IMG/VR virus record: IMGVR_UViG_3300029841_000009
Location: 4,544-68,543 of that record
Length of the DNA: 64,000 nucleotides
Reading direction: 5' to 3' (one strand)
Source: a virus
Lineage: Duplodnaviria; Heunggongvirae; Uroviricota; Caudoviricetes
The notes under the pieces were generated by a model. It did not search any database, was not told the DNA's origin, and worked only from the letters and a program-made list of their open reading frames with translations. Shown here piece by piece: positions 4,482 to 64,000 of this stretch. Within the stretch, counting starts at the first letter, position 1, and each line of letters opens with the position of its first letter. The translations under genes and the position numbers were made by a program.

Positions 4482-5086
4482 CAGGACAACCTCGCAATGG
4501 TAAACTCGTCAACCGGTGGCTGTGGTTCCTGTGATTCATTCTGGCTATGCGAGCCAGCACTAAGAATCACGCGATTGTACATATTGAGAGCAAATGTACC
4601 GAGATCCGCATTCCCAGTCAGCGCCATGTTAATGGCTGCCGCAAGACGCCAGGCCAGCGCCTCCATAAAAATGGCATCAAACATGTTTACATCTGAAACG
4701 CGAGAGACATACTTGAGCCATGCCTGCGGCTGGTCTGTGTAGATCAATTTTCCTGTTCCGTTGGTGTCTGCACCAACTTCGTACTGAACGCGCATTGCTG
4801 CTGTTGGATTGCGTACACCAGGAAGCATAATTTCAGTAATGCGCAGACAATCTGACGGGTACTGGTACGCATATTCCCAGTCAGGCGGTGGATTGCTCGT
4901 ATCTGCAAGCGCCACGCGTTTGGTAGCAAAGTTCCAGTCAAAATCAGAAAGCACAGCATCACGGCAGGCCTCAAAGTGCAGCGAACATTCCCCCGCTTCC
5001 TTGCTGGCTTCCGTCAGGCTGTTAATGCTGCGGCTGTTGCCAATATTGGACAGCGCACGATTGCAGATCTCTACTACAGAGGCCAT
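4481..5086 (-). CDS. Tail tubular protein A-like / head-tail adaptor (T7 gp11-like)
   Basis: 201 aa; N-terminal pattern ...ALSNIG...W.F resembles gp11-type adaptors; size and order fit. Confidence 0.55.
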   Translation of the reverse strand: MASVVEICNRALSNIGNSRSINSLTEASKEAGECSLHFEACRDAVLSDFDWNFATKRVALADTSNPPPDWEYAYQYPSDCLRITEIMLPGVRNPTAAMRVQYEVGADTNGTGKLIYTDQPQAWLKYVSRVSDVNMFDAIFMEALAWRLAAAINMALTGNADLGTFALNMYNRVILSAGSHSQNESQEPQPPVDEFTIARLS

Positions 5087-10297: not shown

Positions 10298-10374
10298 GTG
10301 GCATTAGCTCAGTCGGACAGAGCAACCGCCTTCTAAGCGGTTGGTCGCAGGTTCGAATCCTGCATGCCACGCCA
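10298..10374 (+). tRNA. tRNA-Arg (anticodon UCU)
   Basis: Cloverleaf read by hand: acceptor GTGGCAT/ATGCCAC, D-arm GCTC..GAGC, anticodon stem ACCGC/GCGGT with loop CTTCTAA, T-arm GCAGG-TTCGAAT-CCTGC, discriminator G, CCA. Confidence 0.8.
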
Positions 10375-14256: not shown

Positions 14257-14900
14257 TCGTACTCACCCCCCGCTGTTTTGAATTTGATCTCCGCTGCCTG
14301 CAATGCGTGTTCGACGTCGAAGCGGTCCAGCCATCCACCAAAGTGGTGCGGCATCATTACCACCCGCTCACCGCTATTTATTGGGTGGCCCATACGGGGT
14401 TCGTAGCCGTCCGGTAACTCGACTTCCCGCGCTTCCAGTTCTGCTATGCGCTTCTCTGATGCTTCAAGTAACGCCTGCTTATCGCGTAGCGCTTCTTCCA
14501 GTTCAGCAACATGGCACTCACTATCAATAAGGTTGTTCTCTGCGGCTTCCAGCTCAACACGCAGCTTCCCTACCGTTAGCGCAATATCCTCGTTCTCTTG
14601 GTCGCGGCGTTTGATGTATTGCTGGTTTCTTTCCCGTTCATCCAACAATGCCAGCACGGTAACTGGATTGGCTGCGGCGATGAATTCAGCATTGGCCTGC
14701 TGTTCCATTTGGAAATCTTCATCGAAACCGCTTTCAGGATGCGCTCCTTCAATTCTGCAAATGGGAAGATATCCAACAACTTCACGATGAATTAGCGCAT
14801 CACCAGCATCAAATCTCTCCTCTCCATATTCTAGCGACCACACACCACACGTTGCTTTTTCTGCCTTAGCACGCAGTGCCTGGTAATTAATTTCGCTCAC
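14253..14900 (-). CDS. Ead/Ea22-like protein
   Basis: N-terminus MSEINYQALRAKAEKA and coiled-coil core LLDERERNQQYIKRRDQENEDIALTVGKLRVELEAAE, as in lambdoid Ead/Ea22 proteins. Confidence 0.55.
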   Translation of the reverse strand: MSEINYQALRAKAEKATCGVWSLEYGEERFDAGDALIHREVVGYLPICRIEGAHPESGFDEDFQMEQQANAEFIAAANPVTVLALLDERERNQQYIKRRDQENEDIALTVGKLRVELEAAENNLIDSECHVAELEEALRDKQALLEASEKRIAELEAREVELPDGYEPRMGHPINSGERVVMMPHHFGGWLDRFDVEHALQAAEIKFKTAGGEYE

Positions 14901-15137
14901 TGGCTGCCTCCTGCTTTTCTGCCTTCAACACCATGCGAGAACCATCATCCAGCTCCCACACTATCTCACCACCTTCAGCCATGACCAGTTGCCACACCAA
15001 TTGAGCAGCCTCATTGGTAACATCACGACCTGGATCATTGCCAACGCGCATACGTCCACCTTCAACATCGCGCATTTTTGCCAGCATGATAGTTTTTGAT
15101 AGCGGTGAAAAACCAAGCTGTAGTCGTGCTGAATTAC

Positions 15138-15764
15138 TCACTGGTTGCCTCCTTTGCGAAGCTGTTCCGCCCATTCTTCAAGGGATTTCTCCGCATATTC
15201 ACCGGACAGGCCATCAATCGGATGCGCTTCATTAACCAACTCTTCTTTCGCTGACAAAATCATGCGTGTAACGTCGAAAACTTCACGCAAAGACTTATTG
15301 ATAAATCCGTGATTGAACGCAGCAGCAAGACGGCTGGCGGTATAGTTAATCCCCTCGTTGCGTGCTTCCGCACGAATTTCAGCCAGAAAAGCATCGGTAG
15401 CTGGAGTTTCGCTGTGGTGTAGGGCATCATTGATAATCATTGCAGCAACACCAGCCTGCCCTGCATCCGTGACCGACACATGCTCAAGAGTTACGGCCAT
15501 TGCGTGTTTCAGTCCGTCGTTCTCCACCACCAGCGCAGCGAGATTAGTCTCATACTCCGCAATTCGGCACATAGCATCGATATTTGTGTCCTCCAGCCGC
15601 TTAATTTCATCCAGTAGCGCCAGCACAACCTGCGGTGTGACCTTCATACGAAACGCGAGCAATTTTTGCGGCGTTGCCACGACTTTTATTGCTTCTGCTG
15701 CCTCACGCAGTGCCTGGTAATTAATTTCGCTCACTGGTTGCCTCCTGAATACGCTTAAACTCAA
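15138..15764 (-). CDS. Ead/Ea22-like protein (paralog)
   Basis: Contains SEINYQALREAAEA; its 3' ~250 bp is near-identical to 63750-64000. Confidence 0.5.
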   Translation of the reverse strand: MSLSVFRRQPVSEINYQALREAAEAIKVVATPQKLLAFRMKVTPQVVLALLDEIKRLEDTNIDAMCRIAEYETNLAALVVENDGLKHAMAVTLEHVSVTDAGQAGVAAMIINDALHHSETPATDAFLAEIRAEARNEGINYTASRLAAAFNHGFINKSLREVFDVTRMILSAKEELVNEAHPIDGLSGEYAEKSLEEWAEQLRKGGNQ

Positions 15765-16790: not shown

Positions 16791-17089
16791 GCCACAGCCC
16801 CTCTCAACGGCTTAACTTTGGCTAATAAGGTGTTAAACAACATGGAGTTAGGATTCATGCCAAATGGCAATTCCGGTTTAGCGGAGTAGTACAGGCAACC
16901 ATTTATTTTCCTGGTTGTTATCTGTCCTTCGGCAACCATGCTTCTCAGTCTGCAACGCATAGAGTTCTGCGACACACCAATGTGCTCCGCGATTACGTCC
17001 ACTTTTGAACATGGGTGATCGGTCAGGAAATTAATCACATCTTGGGGGTTAATAATTTTGCGTTTCATTGTCGAGGCGTCCTTATACAT
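16787..17089 (-). CDS. Putative DNA-binding protein (probable start at MKRKIINPQD, about 17068)
   Basis: Helix-turn-helix-like segment; AT-rich iteron lies just upstream. Confidence 0.4.
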   Translation of the reverse strand: MYKDASTMKRKIINPQDVINFLTDHPCSKVDVIAEHIGVSQNSMRCRLRSMVAEGQITTRKINGCLYYSAKPELPFGMNPNSMLFNTLLAKVKPLRGAVA

Positions 17090-17117
17090 TTATATAAATA
17101 TATAATTCTATATACGG
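17084..17117. repeat. AT-rich iteron (TATATAAAT..TATAATTCTATATA family)
   Basis: Shares the TATAAAT / TATAATT core with seven other copies in the window. Confidence 0.5.
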
Positions 17118-17145: not shown

Positions 17146-18213
17146 TCAGGCTTTCAATAGCGATTCTTTCAGATATCGGGCATCAGCCAGGGCATTTGGA
17201 GTAATCTTGCGAACCCATGCATTACGGGTTGGACTCCACTTAAAGGCGCGTGATTTAAGCAGCGAACGAATGTTTGCCTCTGGTTTGCCAGGGAAATAAA
17301 ACAGGATGCGGTTATCCTCTGGATCTATCTCCATAGAAAAGTCGTCGTATTCTTCGCGCTGTGCTCCTGTTACAGACTTGACCGATTCAAGCTCCTTAAT
17401 ACGGCTCTGTAGTCGTTTGATCTCGGCGTTATTGTTGCTCAGTGCGTATGAAGGGAATCCGATGTGCCCACAGAAATCTCCGGCCAGTAACTCTTTGGCT
17501 TCGCTTTCTGTAAACCTGAGATCGATTAATGCAGAAAGCTGCTGTAATTGGTCTTTTTTGTATTTGCGAATGGCCTTATTTGCGGCCTTCATTTTGACGT
17601 GTGACTTCATGCAGCCTTGCAGCTTACGAAGCAACTTAAATAGCGCATCAGGATCATCAGACGAAATTCCATTACGACCAACACCTGCGGCTTTGCTCTC
17701 GTAGTGTGATGCTTTACTTTCGCATTCAACAAACGCTTTTCTTAATAACGCATCAGCTTTAGACAAACGGCGGCGATGGCCTTTCGCGCTATAATGGTCA
17801 ACTAAAATCGGCTGGCCTAACGGGATCACATCCAACAGGTCATGCGCTCGCTTATGCGCTACCGCACCTTCTTTTCTGGCTTTTTCTGCACGAGCAATAT
17901 ATCGGGCAAGACGCGCGTTCTGGCGTTCCTGATAGGTGTTTACGTAATCATCTCCGCGCTGCTGCTGTTCAAGCCATGCTTTGCGCAGATCTTCTGTTAC
18001 GTCCACCAGCTCCGCAGGGATACAACCAGTTTGGGCTTCATAAGAGTAACCATCCTCATAGATACGCCCATCATCTTCAACAAAGAAAAAGGTTTCGTGC
18101 TCATCGCTTTTGACCATACGACCATTAACATGGCGTAATAGGTAGCCAGTATCAGTGCTTAACAGGCTGTTAGGGTTGTTGATCCAGTCAGAAATAATTA
18201 CTTGTTTATTCAT
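17146..18213 (-). CDS. DUF3560-like protein
   Basis: 355 aa; central IPLGQPILVDHYSAKGHRRRLSKAD segment typical of DUF3560. Confidence 0.5.
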   Translation of the reverse strand: MNKQVIISDWINNPNSLLSTDTGYLLRHVNGRMVKSDEHETFFFVEDDGRIYEDGYSYEAQTGCIPAELVDVTEDLRKAWLEQQQRGDDYVNTYQERQNARLARYIARAEKARKEGAVAHKRAHDLLDVIPLGQPILVDHYSAKGHRRRLSKADALLRKAFVECESKASHYESKAAGVGRNGISSDDPDALFKLLRKLQGCMKSHVKMKAANKAIRKYKKDQLQQLSALIDLRFTESEAKELLAGDFCGHIGFPSYALSNNNAEIKRLQSRIKELESVKSVTGAQREEYDDFSMEIDPEDNRILFYFPGKPEANIRSLLKSRAFKWSPTRNAWVRKITPNALADARYLKESLLKA

Positions 18214-18335
18214 CAGATTTCTCCGGTTTAACCAGGGCGGGTATCGCTCGGTTTCGGGTATAACCTTAGGAAATTTTTTCCCACCTGTAAAGCACTTTTT
18301 ATATAAATCTATAATTATATATTTATAGATTTTCG
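18214..18335 (-). promoter_or_regulatory. Conserved promoter-leader cassette, copy 1
   Basis: AT-rich iteron, then -35 TTTACA, 17 bp, -10 TAAGGT, about 50-nt leader with GGAG SD; near-identical copies at 28215-28333 and 58794-58911. Confidence 0.5.
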
Positions 18336-20733: not shown

Positions 20734-20752
20734 TTAACGAACTCCAGTTAAA

Positions 20753-20870
20753 ACCACGATATGTGGTATTAAAACCACATATCGTGAGTTTTTCAATGGG
20801 CAAAACAAAAAATAACCTTCTATTTGTGGTCCACCTCTCGTCTTACCATGTGAAAACCACTAAATGTGGT
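20753..20870. promoter_or_regulatory. Operator cluster between cro-like and CI-like genes
   Basis: Three 15-bp palindromes: ACCAC-GATAT-GTGGT (20753-20767), ACCAC-ATATC-GTGAG (20774-20788), ACCAC-TAAAT-GTGGT (20856-20870). Confidence 0.55.
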
Positions 20871-22055: not shown

Positions 22056-22160
22056 ATATGATTATAGATTTATATAATTATATAAAACGCTTTTCATCCG
22101 CCAAAAAGTTGGTTATGCTTACCTCGTTCTATAAATATAGATTTATAGAATTATATAACC
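22056..22160. repeat. AT-rich iterons flanking the parA promoter (centromere/operator candidate)
   Basis: TATGATTATAGATTTATATAATTATATAA (22056-22088) and CTATAAATATAGATTTATAGAATTATATAA (22129-22160). Confidence 0.55.
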
Positions 22161-22835: not shown

Positions 22836-22872
22836 TATATAATTATAGTTTTATAGATTTATATAAAAGGGG
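22835..22872. repeat. AT-rich iteron between parA and the RHH gene
   Basis: TAATATATAATTATAGTTTTATAGATTTATATAAAAGG. Confidence 0.5.
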
Positions 22873-23349: not shown

Positions 23350-23371
23350 AAAAAAGGCCCCCGAAGGGGCC
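23350..23371 (-). terminator. Rho-independent terminator (minus-strand orientation)
   Basis: GGCCCC-cgaa-GGGGCC hairpin with T5 on the minus strand. Confidence 0.5.
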
Positions 23372-23377
23372 TAATCG

Positions 23378-23500
23378 CTACTTGCTGCTAATGTTTATCG
23401 TCACATTCAGAGCGTTATCAGTAATCTTCCAACCCTCCCCATGTGGCGTAAACAAAGCTCCAGTAACAACGATAAAAATACACATACAGTATTTTTTCAT
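23378..23500 (-). CDS. Small hydrophobic protein (40 aa, MKKYCMCIFIVVTGALFTPHGEGW...)
   Basis: Internal start of the 23378-23560 ORF with AAGGG SD 7 nt upstream; hydrophobic N-terminus; terminator downstream. Confidence 0.3.
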   Translation of the reverse strand: MKKYCMCIFIVVTGALFTPHGEGWKITDNALNVTINISSK

Positions 23501-23731
23501 TGTATGGCCCTTACAGGCCGTTTCACGGCATCCCCACCGACGAAAACAACGCGAGAGCAAGCACGGCTGCTTGTGCTTGCATGTACGGCAACGGAGAATC
23601 CTCCCCTAAAGTCGGTGCCCGGGTGCGAATCGGCGGGAAGGTCCACAGGTATTTTACGATTATTTTAAGATTAGTTATAGGAAAGAAATTAAACGAAAAA
23701 ACTCGTTTATTTTCACAAAATCAGTAACCTA

Positions 23732-24014: not shown

Positions 24015-24095
24015 CGAGCCGTAGCAAAATCTACGGTCGGGATTGGAACCCCGATAATCATCATGGCGCATACCGCGTTAGCGGTTTTTTTATGC
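24015..24095 (+). ncRNA. Candidate c4-like antisense/regulatory RNA in the antirepressor leader
   Basis: Hairpins CCGTAG-caaaat-CTACGG and TCGGG-AUUGGAA-CCCGA, then terminator ACCGC-gtta-GCGGT plus T7; loop UUGGAAC is complementary to GUUCCAA at 24175-24181. Confidence 0.3.
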
Positions 24096-24256
24096 GTAAA
24101 GCACTGCTACACCCAAATTATGGTGGGGCGTGCGGGGGAGTCGTAAGACTCGCCGGATTCCATGGTGACCGGTAGTTCCAACCCTGTACGTCTCACCACC
24201 CAATGATTGGAACCAGACGGTGGTGAGTATCCTTAACCTTTAAGGGAACTATCACC

Positions 24257-27833: not shown

Positions 27834-28214
27834 TTACTTAACGAGGAATAAAAATGGTTTATCGTTCGGCGGTGTACTCGGGGCTGGCTCGCTTTTGCTC
27901 ATACGATCAGTGTACCAGGCCAGCTCCTTGTCAAAGTAAGCCTGATTAAAATAGGCCATGAATGTGGTTTCAAATCCATAACGACCGCTAATACGCAGCA
28001 TCTGATTGCCGTTCTCTGTTTCCAGATATACCTGGGCACGTTCCTGATTCTCCTTCAGCCAAGTTAAAGCCTCGTCGCACGAGGACACACGATACTCATC
28101 ATCGTAGCCGTCATCGATGCGGCTTGAAGAAGAACGGCAAATCACGCCAACAGAACCAGCCAGGATAGTTTGAATTTTAAGGAAAGCGTTTTTGCGGATT
28201 TTAATCATGCTCAT
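27834..28214 (-). CDS. Hypothetical protein driven by cassette copy 2
   Basis: 126-aa ORF directly downstream of the conserved promoter-leader cassette. Confidence 0.45.
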   Translation of the reverse strand: MSMIKIRKNAFLKIQTILAGSVGVICRSSSSRIDDGYDDEYRVSSCDEALTWLKENQERAQVYLETENGNQMLRISGRYGFETTFMAYFNQAYFDKELAWYTDRMSKSEPAPSTPPNDKPFLFLVK

Positions 28215-28333
28215 CGGGTTATCTCCGGTTTAACCAGGGCGGGTATCGCTCGGTTTCGGGTATAACCATAGGAAATTTTTTCCCACCTGTAAAGCACTTT
28301 TATATAAATCTATAATTATATAATTCTATGAGC
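28215..28333 (-). promoter_or_regulatory. Conserved promoter-leader cassette, copy 2
   Basis: Near-identical to 58794-58911; -35 TTTACA, 17 bp, -10 TATGGT, leader, GGAG SD, ATG. Confidence 0.5.
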
Positions 28334-37255: not shown

Positions 37256-37719
37256 AATAATTTACCTAACGCACTTCTAGTTTTTGACTCTATATTGCCA
37301 GCAATATCAACTAATGCTTCTTTCAGAGAGGTCTGTCCGACTTCCTGTAATTTAATGCCGACGATAATCACTCGTGGATTCCCAGTTGGACCGAAATAAG
37401 TCCATGATTCCTCTATATCTGTAATTATAAAATTACCAAAATACTGAATACCAATTACAACAGGATTTACTTCCTGAATTGATTGCATTGTCCTAAGTAA
37501 TGAAAGCGCAGCCAATGGAACAATGCCAAGTGTTGTATCCAACCGCATATTAAAACTAACTTCATCCAGATCTGGACCTATATCCTCCAGAACAGGTTTA
37601 AGCCCAATAACATCATGGCGCGCTACACGACGCTTTGACGTCCTTTTAAAATTGTTGAACGTATTCACCACTATTGATGAGGCAACAAAAGGCATTGTAC
37701 CAAGCATACCCACAATCAT
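37252..37719 (-). CDS. Baseplate protein (hypothetical)
   Basis: 155-aa ORF between the V-like and W-like genes. Confidence 0.4.
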   Translation of the reverse strand: MIVGMLGTMPFVASSIVVNTFNNFKRTSKRRVARHDVIGLKPVLEDIGPDLDEVSFNMRLDTTLGIVPLAALSLLRTMQSIQEVNPVVIGIQYFGNFIITDIEESWTYFGPTGNPRVIIVGIKLQEVGQTSLKEALVDIAGNIESKTRSALGKLL

Positions 37720-38336
37720 GCCTGAGCCTCCGTTGTCGGAGCGTATTCCCCCTGAGCTGTGTGATGGTGGCCTTTAGATTTAATCCCATCAACATCTATA
37801 TCACCACCAACAACCTTAACATTCCCAGAAATTGTAGCTGCAACACCTCCAGCAGAAGATCCTTTCATTCCACCTTTGAAGGTTAGTAATCCTTCAACTG
37901 TAGCATTTCCGGTAATGATGGTTTCTGGAGCATCAATAGTTACGGTTCCTGTAGCCTTAATGGTTACATCTCCGACAGCATCAACAAGGAGTAAATTAGA
38001 TTCTCTGTCTATCTCAATACGAGTTCCGTTATTAAATCTAATGACGCGTTTATTAACAGTATTAGATGGCGGCTTCTGTGTTTCATCATAAAAACTACCA
38101 AGAATAAAACCTTGTTGCGGCCCCGCGGGATGAAAGATACACAAAACTTGCTCACCAATATCTGGCATCCAGTAATCAGCATTCTTATCTGTATTTTTCA
38201 CAATAACTGATAACTTTGCCGAAGTGACGCTATCCTGATCATCGAAAGTAACTCTTGCTGTAACATCACCATCATCAATATCAGAAACAACGCCAACTCT
38301 TATAGTCTGACGTAATAATGTTTCTAAATCATTCAT
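37716..38336 (-). CDS. Baseplate spike protein V-like
   Basis: 206 aa; N-terminal pattern LLRQTIRVGVVSDID...WMPDIGEQVLCIFHPAG...GFILGSFY typical of gpV. Confidence 0.7.
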   Translation of the reverse strand: MNDLETLLRQTIRVGVVSDIDDGDVTARVTFDDQDSVTSAKLSVIVKNTDKNADYWMPDIGEQVLCIFHPAGPQQGFILGSFYDETQKPPSNTVNKRVIRFNNGTRIEIDRESNLLLVDAVGDVTIKATGTVTIDAPETIITGNATVEGLLTFKGGMKGSSAGGVAATISGNVKVVGGDIDVDGIKSKGHHHTAQGEYAPTTEAQA

Positions 38337-53639: not shown

Positions 53640-54000
53640 CCATAACACAACAGGTTAAAGAAAACTGTTTAACTTATTGATACTAAAAGAGAAAAATGAC
53701 GATCTTTTTACTCATAAAAAATCACACAAACCAGCATAATCATCTGATTTTATTAAGTTTTTATAAGTAAAAAGGATCTTGAGATGGTGTTTTGGTTAAA
53801 AGATTGGATGTATTTGCATGATTTATAACGATTTTTATCAGAACAACATCACATTGGTTAAAGATCTGCGCGTATCTTGATGATCTAAAAGAAAATTTTC
53901 TACTTTCTTTTTACCAGCACAAATACAGCAAAAAATCACGTTTTCCCGATATTTTTCAATGAGATGAGTAAATTTCTTTTACCGCAACTTTTAACCTAAC
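53640..54000. repeat. AT-rich region with direct repeats TGGTTAAA(A)GAT (candidate cos/pac or late-promoter region)
   Basis: GGTTAAAG at 53652, 53794, 53856 and inverted TTTAACC at 53989; GATCTTGA repeated. Confidence 0.35.
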
Positions 54001-58527: not shown

Positions 58528-58793
58528 TCATCATCTCCTGCCGCACATACAACCTCACAAAAAAAATCAGCAGAATGTTTCTCCTTGAACGAATGACGCT
58601 CAAAACCGCACTCAATATCAGGCGCAAAAACATCCACCACATACGGTCTTTCAGAATGTTTGTTTTCCCAACGATAAACCGTAGTGACGTTGAAATGTTT
58701 TAACGCTTCACGGAACTCAACGCTGCCAGTCAGGTTTTTTGAGGTCAGGTATTGCAGGAGGTTTTTTACTACTTCACGGTCTTGTACTTTCAT
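58524..58793 (-). CDS. Hypothetical protein driven by cassette copy 3
   Basis: 89-aa ORF immediately downstream of the conserved promoter-leader cassette. Confidence 0.45.
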   Translation of the reverse strand: MKVQDREVVKNLLQYLTSKNLTGSVEFREALKHFNVTTVYRWENKHSERPYVVDVFAPDIECGFERHSFKEKHSADFFCEVVCAAGDDE

Positions 58794-58911
58794 CGGGTTA
58801 TCTCCGGTTTAACCAGGGCGGGTATCGCTCGGTTTCGGGTATAACCATAGGAAATTTTTTCCCACCTGTAAAGCACTTTTATATAAATCTATAATTATAT
58901 AATTCTATACC
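58794..58911 (-). promoter_or_regulatory. Conserved promoter-leader cassette, copy 3
   Basis: -35 TTTACA (58872-58867), 17 bp, -10 TATGGT (58849-58844), leader with GGAG SD; AT-rich iteron 58877-58911. Confidence 0.5.
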
Positions 58912-59492
58912 ACTTGCCAGAGAGCATCATGCAACTGGATACTTCCATTGCACTGGTTGCCCCAGCCATGCCAACCATCAGGTAAATCACCGCGAGCAAA
59001 CAGCTCAATACGAGGAACATCACCTAACAGCCTTACCAGCTTGTCACGAACCACATCAGGCTTCCGAGAATGCTCCAGACGAGGCGATGTAAACGACTGA
59101 ATGATCCCCGCATCAAGGCGGGTCGGCAATTTGCCTTTTACCGCAAACAAGCAATCTTCACTGTTTGCACGAGTCATATGCCCCATCCCCATCACCAGCT
59201 TATCTGGTTGTCGGCTACCACATTTGTTCCATGTGAAGCCCTTCATGGTCATAAGCCTGAATCCCCATGCTTTCACCACCAGCAACGCTTCTTCTGGCTG
59301 AGTCGGAACCCACCACATGGCCAACAAACACGATTCAGGATTAGCAAGCTGCCAGACAGGAATACGAGCAATATCCTCAGCTTTCATCGTTGGATACTTA
59401 AAACCAGCTCCACGATTCCCATCCTTACACTTATCTTTGTATTCCCAGGGGGGATCTGCATAAATCAGATTAAACAATGCAATTGCCTCCAT
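58905..59492 (-). CDS. MT-A70 family DNA adenine methyltransferase
   Basis: N-terminal LIYADPPWEY (DPPW catalytic motif); 195 aa. Confidence 0.75.
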   Translation of the reverse strand: MEAIALFNLIYADPPWEYKDKCKDGNRGAGFKYPTMKAEDIARIPVWQLANPESCLLAMWWVPTQPEEALLVVKAWGFRLMTMKGFTWNKCGSRQPDKLVMGMGHMTRANSEDCLFAVKGKLPTRLDAGIIQSFTSPRLEHSRKPDVVRDKLVRLLGDVPRIELFARGDLPDGWHGWGNQCNGSIQLHDALWQVV

Positions 59493-59800
59493 GTTAGTTG
59501 TGCCTCCGGCGCTTATCTCCGGCAGTCATAACGCTGGCCAGCTCTACAGCAGACGCAACGAAAAGGGCACTAACCAGACTGATTAATGCCCTTGCCTGTT
59601 GTGTGCCGGATATCGCCCGACAACGCTGTTTTGGTAACACGGCTACAGTTCCGTGCCGCTCCAGCTTTTACCCCTTTGCGGATAACAGGCCCTGCCTGTA
59701 ACTTAGCCCCACGTTCGCCCGAAATGCGCACCAGGCACGCATAAAGATGAGCACGAAGGAAGTAACTCCACCGCGCTTATCTTTATGTGTGAGAGTGAAT

Positions 59801-59876
59801 TGGTGGCCCCTACCGGATTTGAACCGATGACCGTGCGATTATGAGTCGCCTGCTCTAACCACTGAGCTAAGGGGCC
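59801..59876 (-). tRNA. tRNA with CAU anticodon (tRNA-Ile2-like, or Met)
   Basis: Minus-strand read GGCCCCTTAGCTCAGTGGTTAGAGCAGGCGACTCATAATCGC...GGTTCAAATCC...GGGGCCACCA; close to my recollection of E. coli ileX in acceptor, D and anticodon arms. Confidence 0.8.
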
Positions 59877-59883
59877 ATATTTG

Positions 59884-59972
59884 ATCTGTTTGTCTGGTGT
59901 GGCGCCGCGCACGAAAATCCCAGCCAATAAATTCAGGATTTTTGGGCGCGGCGGCATATCAGACAAACATGG
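59884..59972. repeat. Large imperfect palindrome upstream of the tRNA
   Basis: Arms CTGTTTGTCTGG..GGCGCCGCGC and GCGCGGCGGC..CAGACAAACATGG around an inner inverted repeat GAAAATCC...GGATTTT. Confidence 0.45.
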
Positions 59973-60012
59973 TTGATGCGTGCGCCCATGAGAAAAGCGC
60001 ATAGAATGTTGT

Positions 60013-60047
60013 AACTATATATTTATATAATTATAGAAATATATATT
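60013..60047. repeat. AT-rich iteron downstream of the spanin genes
   Basis: AACTATATATTTATATAATTATAGAAATATATATT, same family as the parA-flanking iterons. Confidence 0.45.
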
Positions 60048-63737: not shown

Positions 63738-64000
63738 AACTGAACTCCTTTGCGAATCTGTTCCGCCCATTCTTCAAGGGATTTCTCCGCATATTCACCG
63801 GACAGGCCATCAATCGGGTACGGTTCATTAGCCAACTCTTCTTTCGCTGACAGAATCATGCGCGTAACGTCGAAAACTTCACGCAAAGACTTATTGATAA
63901 ATCCGTGATTGAACGCAGCAGCAAGACGGCTGGCGGTATAGTTAATCCCCTCGTTGCGTGCTTCCGCACGAATTTCAGCCAGAAAAGCATCGGTAGCTGG
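63734..64000 (-). CDS. Ead/Ea22-like protein, C-terminal part (gene runs off the right edge)
   Basis: Near-identical at DNA level to the 3' end of 15138-15764; stop TGA at 63734-63736. Confidence 0.5.
   Translation of the reverse strand, partial: PATDAFLAEIRAEARNEGINYTASRLAAAFNHGFINKSLREVFDVTRMILSAKEELANEPYPIDGLSGEYAEKSLEEWAEQIRKGVQL

Follow-up and report, generated by a model that had tools for sequence, protein, structure and literature searches.

An 83-nt conserved palindrome at the edge of a variable non-coding slot, next to an ileX-type tRNA gene, in a phage-plasmid of Escherichia coli

The DNA analysed here is a 64,000-nt stretch of IMG/VR virus record IMGVR_UViG_3300029841_000009 (positions 4,544 to 68,543; hereafter the window), of which the part from ~14.5–15.1 kb to 64000 is a ~48-kb phage-plasmid of Escherichia coli. 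In its late region lie a tRNA gene with a CAU anticodon and, immediately upstream, a large imperfect palindrome, which a first-pass annotation had singled out together. Judged by its identity elements, the tRNA is of the ileX type (tRNA-Ile2), i.e., a known kind of gene that is already annotated in RefSeq and holds little new information. The useful result is the palindrome, a tightly constrained and unannotated cis element at the edge of a slot with differing non-coding cargo; it belongs to the backbone of the phage-plasmid and is independent of the tRNA. Tentatively, with a probability of roughly 0.4, we read it as a selected hairpin in the leader of a non-coding unit, acting on RNA. The features of the region are listed in Table 1.

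The palindrome consists of two 34-nt arms (59887–59920 and 59936–59969) that pair at 29 of 34 positions (85%) around a 15-nt loop (59921–59935). It is the largest inverted repeat in the whole phage-plasmid, occurs as a single copy in the window, and has a number of paired positions that the best 34-nt-arm inverted repeats of 20 shuffles (21–23 paired) did not approach. It lies immediately upstream of the tRNA, ending 10 nt before the tRNA 5′ end in tRNA orientation, and is far beyond chance as an inverted repeat. The size first described as about 90 bp is really 83 bp, and the supposedly nested repeats are three paired blocks split by mismatches. As RNA of the sense strand (i.e., the minus strand of the window, on which the late genes lie), the palindrome folds at –39.5 kcal/mol. 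Rfam searches in gathering and E-value modes yielded only generic miRNA-precursor matches below threshold for the hairpin, next to a weak rydB-like match at 59495–59550 (27 bits vs. a gathering threshold of 50).

The palindrome is confined to this phage-plasmid family, being present in 70 of 5426 E. coli genomes (i.e., ~1.3% of complete genomes carry the family) and in 61 plasmid records. It is of full length in all 70 E. coli records, and 70 of its 71 places are on ~48-kb plasmids, the other one being chromosomal. Four Salmonella-type relatives (NZ_CP044178.1, or L006; CP053324.1, or L007; metagenome contig L085; and IMG/VR contig L010) keep the palindrome, together with an AT-rich box upstream of it (AT box), between the lysis genes and the gene for an MT-A70 methyltransferase. 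However, the tRNA behind the palindrome is absent in all three of these relatives with enough downstream sequence, so that palindrome and tRNA are separable. From ~10 nt past the palindrome, the Salmonella types carry ~370 or ~670 nt of other non-coding sequence, which folds much better on the sense strand (–127.5 vs. –110.6 kcal/mol), has no Rfam match and may be a novel structured RNA. The lysis cassette upstream of the AT box differs between the E. coli and Salmonella types as well. Since both this cassette and the downstream cargo vary, AT box and palindrome stand as a conserved island with a mosaic module on either side.

Scanning viral and metagenome collections for the pattern gave only the E. 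coli-type copies and the four Salmonella-type versions. Among 33 loci in other genera, reached as distant orthologues via the MT-A70 neighbour, none had the palindrome, the AT box or a tRNA upstream. In a Serratia relative (CP083756.1), the methylase module is missing and the lysis genes are not followed by a palindrome, and no palindrome lies upstream of the related tRNA-Ile of plasmid pUSDA5905_1 (see below). A dispersed repeat resembling repetitive extragenic palindromes or miniature inverted-repeat transposable elements was set aside in view of the single copy in the window and the restriction to 70 of 5426 genomes. The Serratia marcescens plasmid (CP083756.1, L103) holds, at 37615–37741, a 127-nt tRNA-like gene with a ~55-nt insertion, which scores 46 bits with the Rfam tRNA model and is not reported by ARAGORN; ~140 nt downstream of it, positions 37880–37995 share 89% identity with part of the Salmonella-type cargo.

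Across 20 E. coli-type haplotypes, not a single site varies in the 83-nt palindrome or in the 46-nt AT box, as against ~9 variable sites per 100 nt in the rest of the region (~549 nt; tally without alignment-end columns), 3 of 76 sites in the tRNA and one polymorphic site in the spacer between hairpin and tRNA. A simple Poisson estimate for zero changes in 129 nt is ~1e-5, or ~0.007 at the lower rate of the tRNA. Between the E. coli and Salmonella types, the palindrome retains 73–77% identity over the matched part without any change in length, and compensatory changes occur at pairs 12, 17, 19 and 21. The observed covariation was reached in 9 of 500 shuffles, and shifted registers pair at 23–52% vs. 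86%; we regard the compensatory changes as supportive of a selected hairpin, not as proof of it.

An outer block (TGTTTGnCTG) and an inner block (RAAAATCC) of the arms are conserved between the types, and the middle is variable. Together with the invariance within the E. coli type and the operator-like box next door, this pattern could also stem from a function of the palindrome as double-stranded DNA or cruciform, i.e., as a long symmetric site bound by a phage protein in control of the adjacent promoter or of the neighbouring methylase or ParB-like genes. This appears rather improbable, as the compensatory changes in mid-arm point to base pairing instead of half-site recognition, a site acting only as duplex gives no reason to expect the strand-asymmetric mismatches described below, and no candidate protein was identified, the early proteins having no known function. 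A small open reading frame (ORF) starting from the conserved ATGGGCGC (18 aa in the E. coli type, 34–41 aa in the Salmonella types) was rejected, having no Shine–Dalgarno sequence and a similarity that is explained by nucleotide conservation. By eye, a boxA-like GCGCTTTTCTC suggestive of a lambda-type nut site is not kept in the Salmonella type, and the TGTT...AACA ends have the wrong spacing for a parS-like site.

In the reading that we prefer, RNA polymerase starting at the AT box, or continuing past the lysis genes, would cross the palindrome. The 5′ leader would therefore contain it as a long, imperfectly paired RNA hairpin, acting there as a processing or stability element. In the most likely case, the hairpin would be a substrate of the RNase III type through which the lysis, tRNA and methylase RNAs around it are separated or stabilised, with RNase P releasing the tRNA 10 nt downstream. 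The stem is long enough for RNase III (about two helical turns or more), with 34 positions of which 29 are paired. This reading is favoured by the co-directional neighbours, the 10-nt spacer, the TATAGT hexamer in a recurrent box and the sense-stable 3′ domain further downstream. RNase III processing hairpins are known in polycistronic phage RNAs, e.g., at the intergenic sites of T7 and in lambda sib. The palindrome is like them in having an imperfect stem of more than 20 bp with internal mismatches and in lying between genes of a co-directional array; it differs in that its mismatches favour the opposite strand and in that it has neither similarity to known sites nor an Rfam match. The palindrome and the recurrent motif of the AT box, both without annotation or a matching Rfam family, most likely belong to known classes of cis elements.

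Several points weigh against an RNA-level function. The putative promoter at the AT box is suggested by no more than a –10-like hexamer and the recurrence of the motif, as a sigma-70 scan of the element gave no match and no –35 consensus was found at the box. The five distinct orthologues come from two clades only, so the support from covariation is thin. Finally, the mismatch pattern is opposite to that of a usual sense-RNA hairpin, so that the functional fold may be that of the other strand, or of DNA.

Indeed, in all five versions of the palindrome the mismatches on the sense strand are A·C, C·C, C·U or U·U and never involve G, and on the + strand of the window the same mismatches are G·U (five cells), G·G, G·A or A·A. 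The + strand is the more stable one in each version, by 3–13 kcal/mol as RNA and by 7–14 kcal/mol as DNA. For the E. coli type, the DNA fold reaches –33.4 kcal/mol on the + strand, where the hairpin is nearly continuous, vs. –24.6 kcal/mol on the sense strand, with folding z values as single-stranded DNA (ssDNA) of –8.65 and –6.1, respectively. G predominates on the sense strand of the element (12407 G vs. 9471 C) and C in the hairpin arms (22 C vs. 16 G); the strand asymmetry is not a general composition effect. Moreover, the small hairpin, the 3′ domain and the terminator-like hairpin of the same region have an ordinary sense-strand signature, which the big palindrome lacks. The palindrome may thus fold functionally on the opposite strand, as ssDNA or antisense RNA, or, alternatively, it may be a sense RNA hairpin that is deliberately kept imperfect.

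One way to accommodate this asymmetry is an ssDNA hairpin of the + strand (i.e., the strand complementary to the late genes) that serves as a strand-specific priming signal or single-strand origin (ssi-, sso- or Frpo-like) or as part of a lytic origin. It would be used when the + strand is displaced in lytic replication, possibly with the primase-like DUF3560 protein that the phage-plasmid encodes (phrog_19458, E = 2.6e-36). Besides the stability data, all five transition mismatches are G·T on the + strand and the transversions are purine–purine, counter to the genome-wide skew; a ~46-bp AT-rich stretch adjoins the GC-rich palindrome; and a weak TTGnCT-N17-RAAAAT pattern falls on the conserved arm blocks, outer and inner. 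We regard this possibility as the main rival of an RNA-level function, though as the less probable of the two. The arm pattern, rejected as promoter hexamers, matches at only 8 of 12 positions, as expected by chance. The skew does not switch at the site, its vicinity has neither iterons nor a known initiator, and the plasmid replicon (repA) is ~28 kb away. The AT box is one of eight similar promoter/operator-like sites and so not a unique unwinding element, and the four Salmonella-type versions are closely related, so that the asymmetry rests on few independent events.

Strand-specific large palindromes are found in the sso of rolling-circle plasmids, the M13 minus-strand origin and Frpo of F. 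The present palindrome shares their large size, imperfect pairing and strand-specific stability; in contrast to them, it is accompanied by no annotated rolling-circle Rep gene, lies inside a gene array and contains only weak promoter-like hexamers. More generally, a DNA hairpin on the strand complementary to the late genes that either primes or organises lytic replication, or acts as a structure-specific hot spot for swaps of non-coding cargo, is a plausible, though less probable, explanation. If so, the mismatches kept in the + strand-stable form would be its signature.

Returning to the preferred RNA hairpin, the 10-nt spacer is too short for a promoter, and therefore the tRNA would be expressed only via transcription through the palindrome, which rules out a strong terminator there. 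A terminator, one of the roles first envisaged, might be expected, for the lysis operon, from a GC-rich, stable hairpin ~80 nt past the stop of the last lysis ORF (60046). However, neither strand has a U tract (the sense strand continues with GATCAAATAT and the + strand with TGGTTGATG), a terminator scan found no site at the palindrome, the palindrome lies downstream of a promoter-like box with the tRNA 10 nt on and no other promoter, and a separate hairpin with a TTTTCGTT tail is present at ~59557–59591. Intrinsic termination at the palindrome is therefore hardly credible.

The mosaic layout also brings up recombination, with the palindrome as an att core, or as a hot spot or structure-specific site at which cargo such as the tRNA would be exchanged. 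Three different cargoes start within ~10–15 nt of the 3′ edge of the palindrome, the lysis cassette on the other side of the island differs too, and mismatch positions 7, 11 and 16 recur across types. In a metagenome contig (OGYU01028573.1, L099), the 5′ arm is cut off at ~1065–1095 and joined to unrelated, apparently coding sequence, which by eye is possibly threonyl-tRNA-synthetase-like; this 1.2-kb contig may reflect recombination at the hairpin but may equally be an assembly chimera. A recombination site is nonetheless very unlikely. Among the annotated genes of the phage-plasmid (pECO-b75) there is no integrase or recombinase. Every one of the 70 E. coli records, the chromosomal case among them, has an intact palindrome, as does the window; the tRNA gene is whole and has no duplicate, and inspection by eye found no attC core, dif/cer-like XerCD site or telomere-type perfect palindrome. 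The att core suggested at first is further contradicted by the extrachromosomal state of the phage-plasmid and by the join of the window to foreign DNA, which lies ~45 kb from the palindrome.

With regard to specific site types, integron attC sites are marked by R′′/R′ cores (RYYYAAC...GTTRRRY), extrahelical bases and a partner IntI integrase; here, the arm ends have no core motifs (by eye), the mismatches are symmetric instead of bulged, and no integrase is annotated. Telomere-resolution sites of the N15 telRL type are perfect palindromes without spacer and come with a protelomerase gene, and the 15-nt non-palindromic centre, the five mismatches, the circular records and the lack of an annotated protelomerase led us to dismiss this type as well. 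A dif/cer-like XerCD site considered at GGTGCGCATTT (59725–59735) has no XerD arm (by eye).

Table 1. Positions of the features discussed (window coordinates, unless another record is named)
Feature	Position	Strand	Basis
MT-A70 methyltransferase	58905–59492	–	
Conserved structured non-coding 3′ domain upstream of the MT-A70 gene	59493–59735	–	Alignment fold
Terminator-like hairpin, followed by TTTTCGTT (59557–59564)	~59565–59591	–	Alignment fold
Second hairpin just downstream of the tRNA (25-nt arms, 80% complementary)	59736–59791	–	Inverted repeat, fold
tRNA-Ile2 gene (anticodon CAU, ileX/ileY type, CCA encoded; cargo in variable slot)	59801–59876	–	ARAGORN, Rfam
10-nt spacer (GATCAAATAT), hairpin to tRNA 5′ end	59877–59886	–	Read from sequence
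83-nt imperfect palindrome, hairpin-forming backbone element	59887–59969	.	Inverted-repeat search, folding, conservation
Small hairpin GCGC-N11-GCGC, between AT box and palindrome	59982–60000	–	Fold
AT-rich box with 30-bp palindromic motif (60016–60045; core TATAATTATA) and –10-like TATAGT	60001–60046	.	Conservation, motif recurrence
30-bp AT motif sites	~17083–17112, 18300–18329, 22057–22082, 22136–22155		Sequence scan
30-bp AT motif sites, continued	22838–22857, 28301–28330, 58880–58909, 60016–60045		Sequence scan
Salmonella-type slot content (~370 or ~670 nt, non-coding)	L006 2130–2506	–	
Salmonella-type slot content (~370 or ~670 nt, non-coding)	L010 7990–8660	+	
ryfA match	23350–23646	–	Rfam
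isrK match	24018–24091	+	Rfam
C4 antisense RNA match	24116–24203	+	Rfam

The AT box, whose –10-like hexamer lies at 60014–60019 on the minus strand, is conserved between the E. coli and Salmonella types with 0 of 46 differences in L006 and 1 of 46 in the other three relatives. Its motif (TATA-N6-TATAATTATA-N6-TATA) recurs at eight places, all of them in the phage-plasmid (15 strand matches vs. 0.05 expected), i.e., upstream of parA, the primase-like DUF3560 gene, small ORFs and the palindrome with the tRNA, and a –10-like hexamer follows the core after 6 nt at each site. The AT box is therefore a probable operator/promoter, and the motif can be read as a class of operators/promoters that are bound by, or depend on, a phage factor and probably serve a dispersed regulon in this family. 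As such, it probably defines the regulatory network of a poorly studied group of phage-plasmids. A 119-bp repeat occurring three times (18209–18327, 28211–28329 and 58790–58908; 94–100% identity) comprises the AT motif, a conserved ~80-nt leader, a ribosome-binding site and the ATG of three unrelated genes, and may be a common regulatory 5′ untranslated region.

Downstream of the AT box on the sense strand, the order is small hairpin, palindrome, cargo, second hairpin, 3′ domain and terminator-like hairpin, which together resemble a structured non-coding transcription unit. Polymorphisms in the small hairpin fall in its loop, apart from one that turns a G-C pair into G·U on the sense strand; the Salmonella type has another hairpin in its place. 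The 3′ arm of the second hairpin is backbone and its 5′ arm arrived with the cargo; in the Salmonella type, the homologous 3′ arm pairs with a different, more distant 5′ arm, and in variant L008 a C-to-T change turns an A·C mismatch of this hairpin into an A-U pair. The sense strand of the 3′ domain is 22–25 kcal/mol more stable than the antisense strand, and the 291-nt region around the tRNA has a folding z of –6.8. The terminator-like hairpin lies ~70 nt upstream of the MT-A70 start and is kept, with a much larger loop, in the Salmonella-type relatives; the alignment fold places three compensatory pairs between types in its stem. Phage morons are units of promoter, cargo and terminator between backbone genes, and the arrangement described here, with a promoter-like box, variable cargo and a terminator-like hairpin between lysis and methylase genes, is similar to them. 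Unlike in morons, the cargo is non-coding (tRNA or RNA-like) and is flanked by a conserved, structured leader and 3′ domain.

The tRNA itself was recovered by ARAGORN as a 76-nt gene with anticodon CAT and isotype label Met, and by the Rfam tRNA model at 59804–59876 with 67 bits, and both tools support a canonical cloverleaf with a CAU anticodon. It was aligned to E. coli ileX, metT/metU and initiator tRNA-fMet. With ileX it shares 68 of 76 positions (89.5%), including the 7-bp acceptor stem, the D arm, the anticodon loop, four of the five anticodon-stem pairs, A73 and the encoded CCA. The differences are at positions 43–44 (G27·A43 for G27·U43, and C44 for U44), in the T stem, which unlike that of ileX contains a U50·G64 wobble, and at one T-loop base, so that the closeness to tRNA-Ile2 with a divergent T arm, as first proposed, was confirmed by alignment.

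An elongator tRNA-Met would fit the CAT anticodon, the ARAGORN call and the tRNA-Met annotation in GenBank records of Yersinia phages, all of which are Met labels resting on the anticodon alone. However, the acceptor stem (GGCCCCU/AGGGGCC) has C4:G69 and C5:G68 as in ileX, without the U4:A69 and A5:U68 pairs of metT. C4:G69 and C5:G68 are the main E. coli TilS identity elements that separate tRNA-Ile2 from tRNA-Met (PMC11947777). In addition, the best E. coli chromosomal match is annotated as tRNA-Ile in 5426 of 5426 genomes, and the identical gene in RefSeq plasmid records is labelled tRNA-Ile by the NCBI Prokaryotic Genome Annotation Pipeline. These determinants argue for an ileX-type tRNA-Ile2 and make elongator Met exceedingly improbable. 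Initiator tRNAs lack pairing at 1:72 and have a run of three G-C pairs at the base of the anticodon stem; with its paired G1-C72 and its (G)GCGA/UCGC(A) anticodon stem, the gene is not of this kind either. A 99-aa ORF overlapping the tRNA (59703–60002) was judged spurious by eye.

The closest phage-borne counterpart is the tRNA-Ile of pUSDA5905_1 (a 96-kb plasmid with a dnaB gene beside the tRNA), with 72 of 76 positions identical. Both tRNAs have the same type of variable loop and T arm and so point to a phage lineage of tRNA-Ile2. Like other 95–100-kb plasmids with a dnaB (ban-like) gene, pUSDA5905_1 is probably P1-like, and ileZ of Shiga toxin (Stx) phages is a phage-borne tRNA-Ile (CAU) as well. 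The role of the pUSDA5905_1 gene is presumed to be the same, i.e., a rare-codon tRNA for phage genes, but its genomic context is different, as the tRNA studied here sits in a cargo slot behind a conserved hairpin. The E. coli ileX/ileY genes (tRNA-Ile2 with lysidine-CAU, decoding AUA) are chromosomal, and their relative here is on a phage-plasmid.

AUA is used at 16.1 per 1000 codons in the phage-plasmid genes overall and at 20.7–22.1 per 1000 in the structural genes, making up 25–32% of the Ile codons, as compared to 2.5 per 1000 codons and 4% of Ile codons in a 41-gene chromosomal sample of E. coli (i.e., a four- to ninefold higher usage). Genes that are rich in AUA are the expected rationale for carrying a tRNA-Ile2. 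The C34 of the tRNA would be converted to lysidine by host TilS, after which charging by IleRS would allow AUA to be read, and the phage-plasmid copy would thus supplement the scarce AUA decoder of the host. In this respect, the tRNA is another case of a phage carrying a rare AUA decoder. AGA plus AGG are used at 15 per 1000 codons in the phage-plasmid genes (L003, i.e., window 15128–64000) vs. 1.9 in the same E. coli sample; the phage-plasmid has no tRNA-Arg, the sole one of the window being located in a neighbouring prophage.

On the minus strand, two holin genes, a GH108 lysozyme gene and Rz-like genes are followed by the non-coding region with the tRNA and by the MT-A70 gene, and 3′ of the latter come small ORFs, three ParB/Srx-like genes, the terminase, and head and tail genes. 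The genes on both sides of tRNA and palindrome are all co-directional, so the location in a late region is upheld and this term is a fair description. The single late operon first assumed did not stand: given the internal promoter/operator-like boxes and the terminator-like hairpin, the tRNA region is not one simple operon.

The phage-plasmid encodes RepA, ParA and a contractile tail. The 601 bp around the feature are 99.5–100% identical to circular 47–50-kb plasmids in 69–70 of 5426 complete E. coli genomes, and the 24 kb compared are 98–99% identical to the same plasmids; one of these plasmids is pECO-b75, and another is the 48.5-kb plasmid of ATCC 25922, a standard laboratory reference strain whose copy (NZ_CP009073.1) is 97.8% identical. 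With Yersinia phages vB_YpM_39, 41 and 44, the 601 bp share 99.5% identity. Plasmid pSLy3 (114 kb, SSU5 group) and Yersinia phage HQ103 (32 kb), considered as relatives, turned out to be unrelated to this ~48-kb family, and a search of the literature gave nothing useful on the family or its accessions.

The first ~14540 nt of the window belong to another prophage, which has portal, terminase, capsid and tail genes as well as a tRNA-Arg(tct) at 10298–10374. Its junction with the phage-plasmid lies at ~14541–15405, near ead/Ea22-like genes, and positions 15149–15404 are 97% identical to 63745–64000. No complete E. coli genome spans this junction; a cointegrate, an integrated phage-plasmid or the joining of contigs may be behind it.

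In the Rha/antirepressor region of the phage-plasmid, Rfam matches to ryfA (142 bits), isrK (70 bits) and a P1-type C4 antisense RNA (84 bits) suggest a P1-like, immI-type immunity circuit. A near-perfect 42-bp palindrome at 20750–20791 (AAAACCACGATATGTGGTATT / AAAACCACATATCGTGAGTTT), between an XRE/CI-like regulator gene and divergent early genes, is probably a repressor operator distinct from the AT motif. Finally, the gap that precedes the ParB/Srx and terminase genes contains an AT-rich inverted repeat at 53704–53774 with 77% complementarity between its 31-nt arms. It is beside this repeat, ~6 kb from the 83-nt palindrome, that the Yersinia phage genome records are opened, so that cos/pac is more likely there, and we regard the repeat as a candidate cos/pac region.

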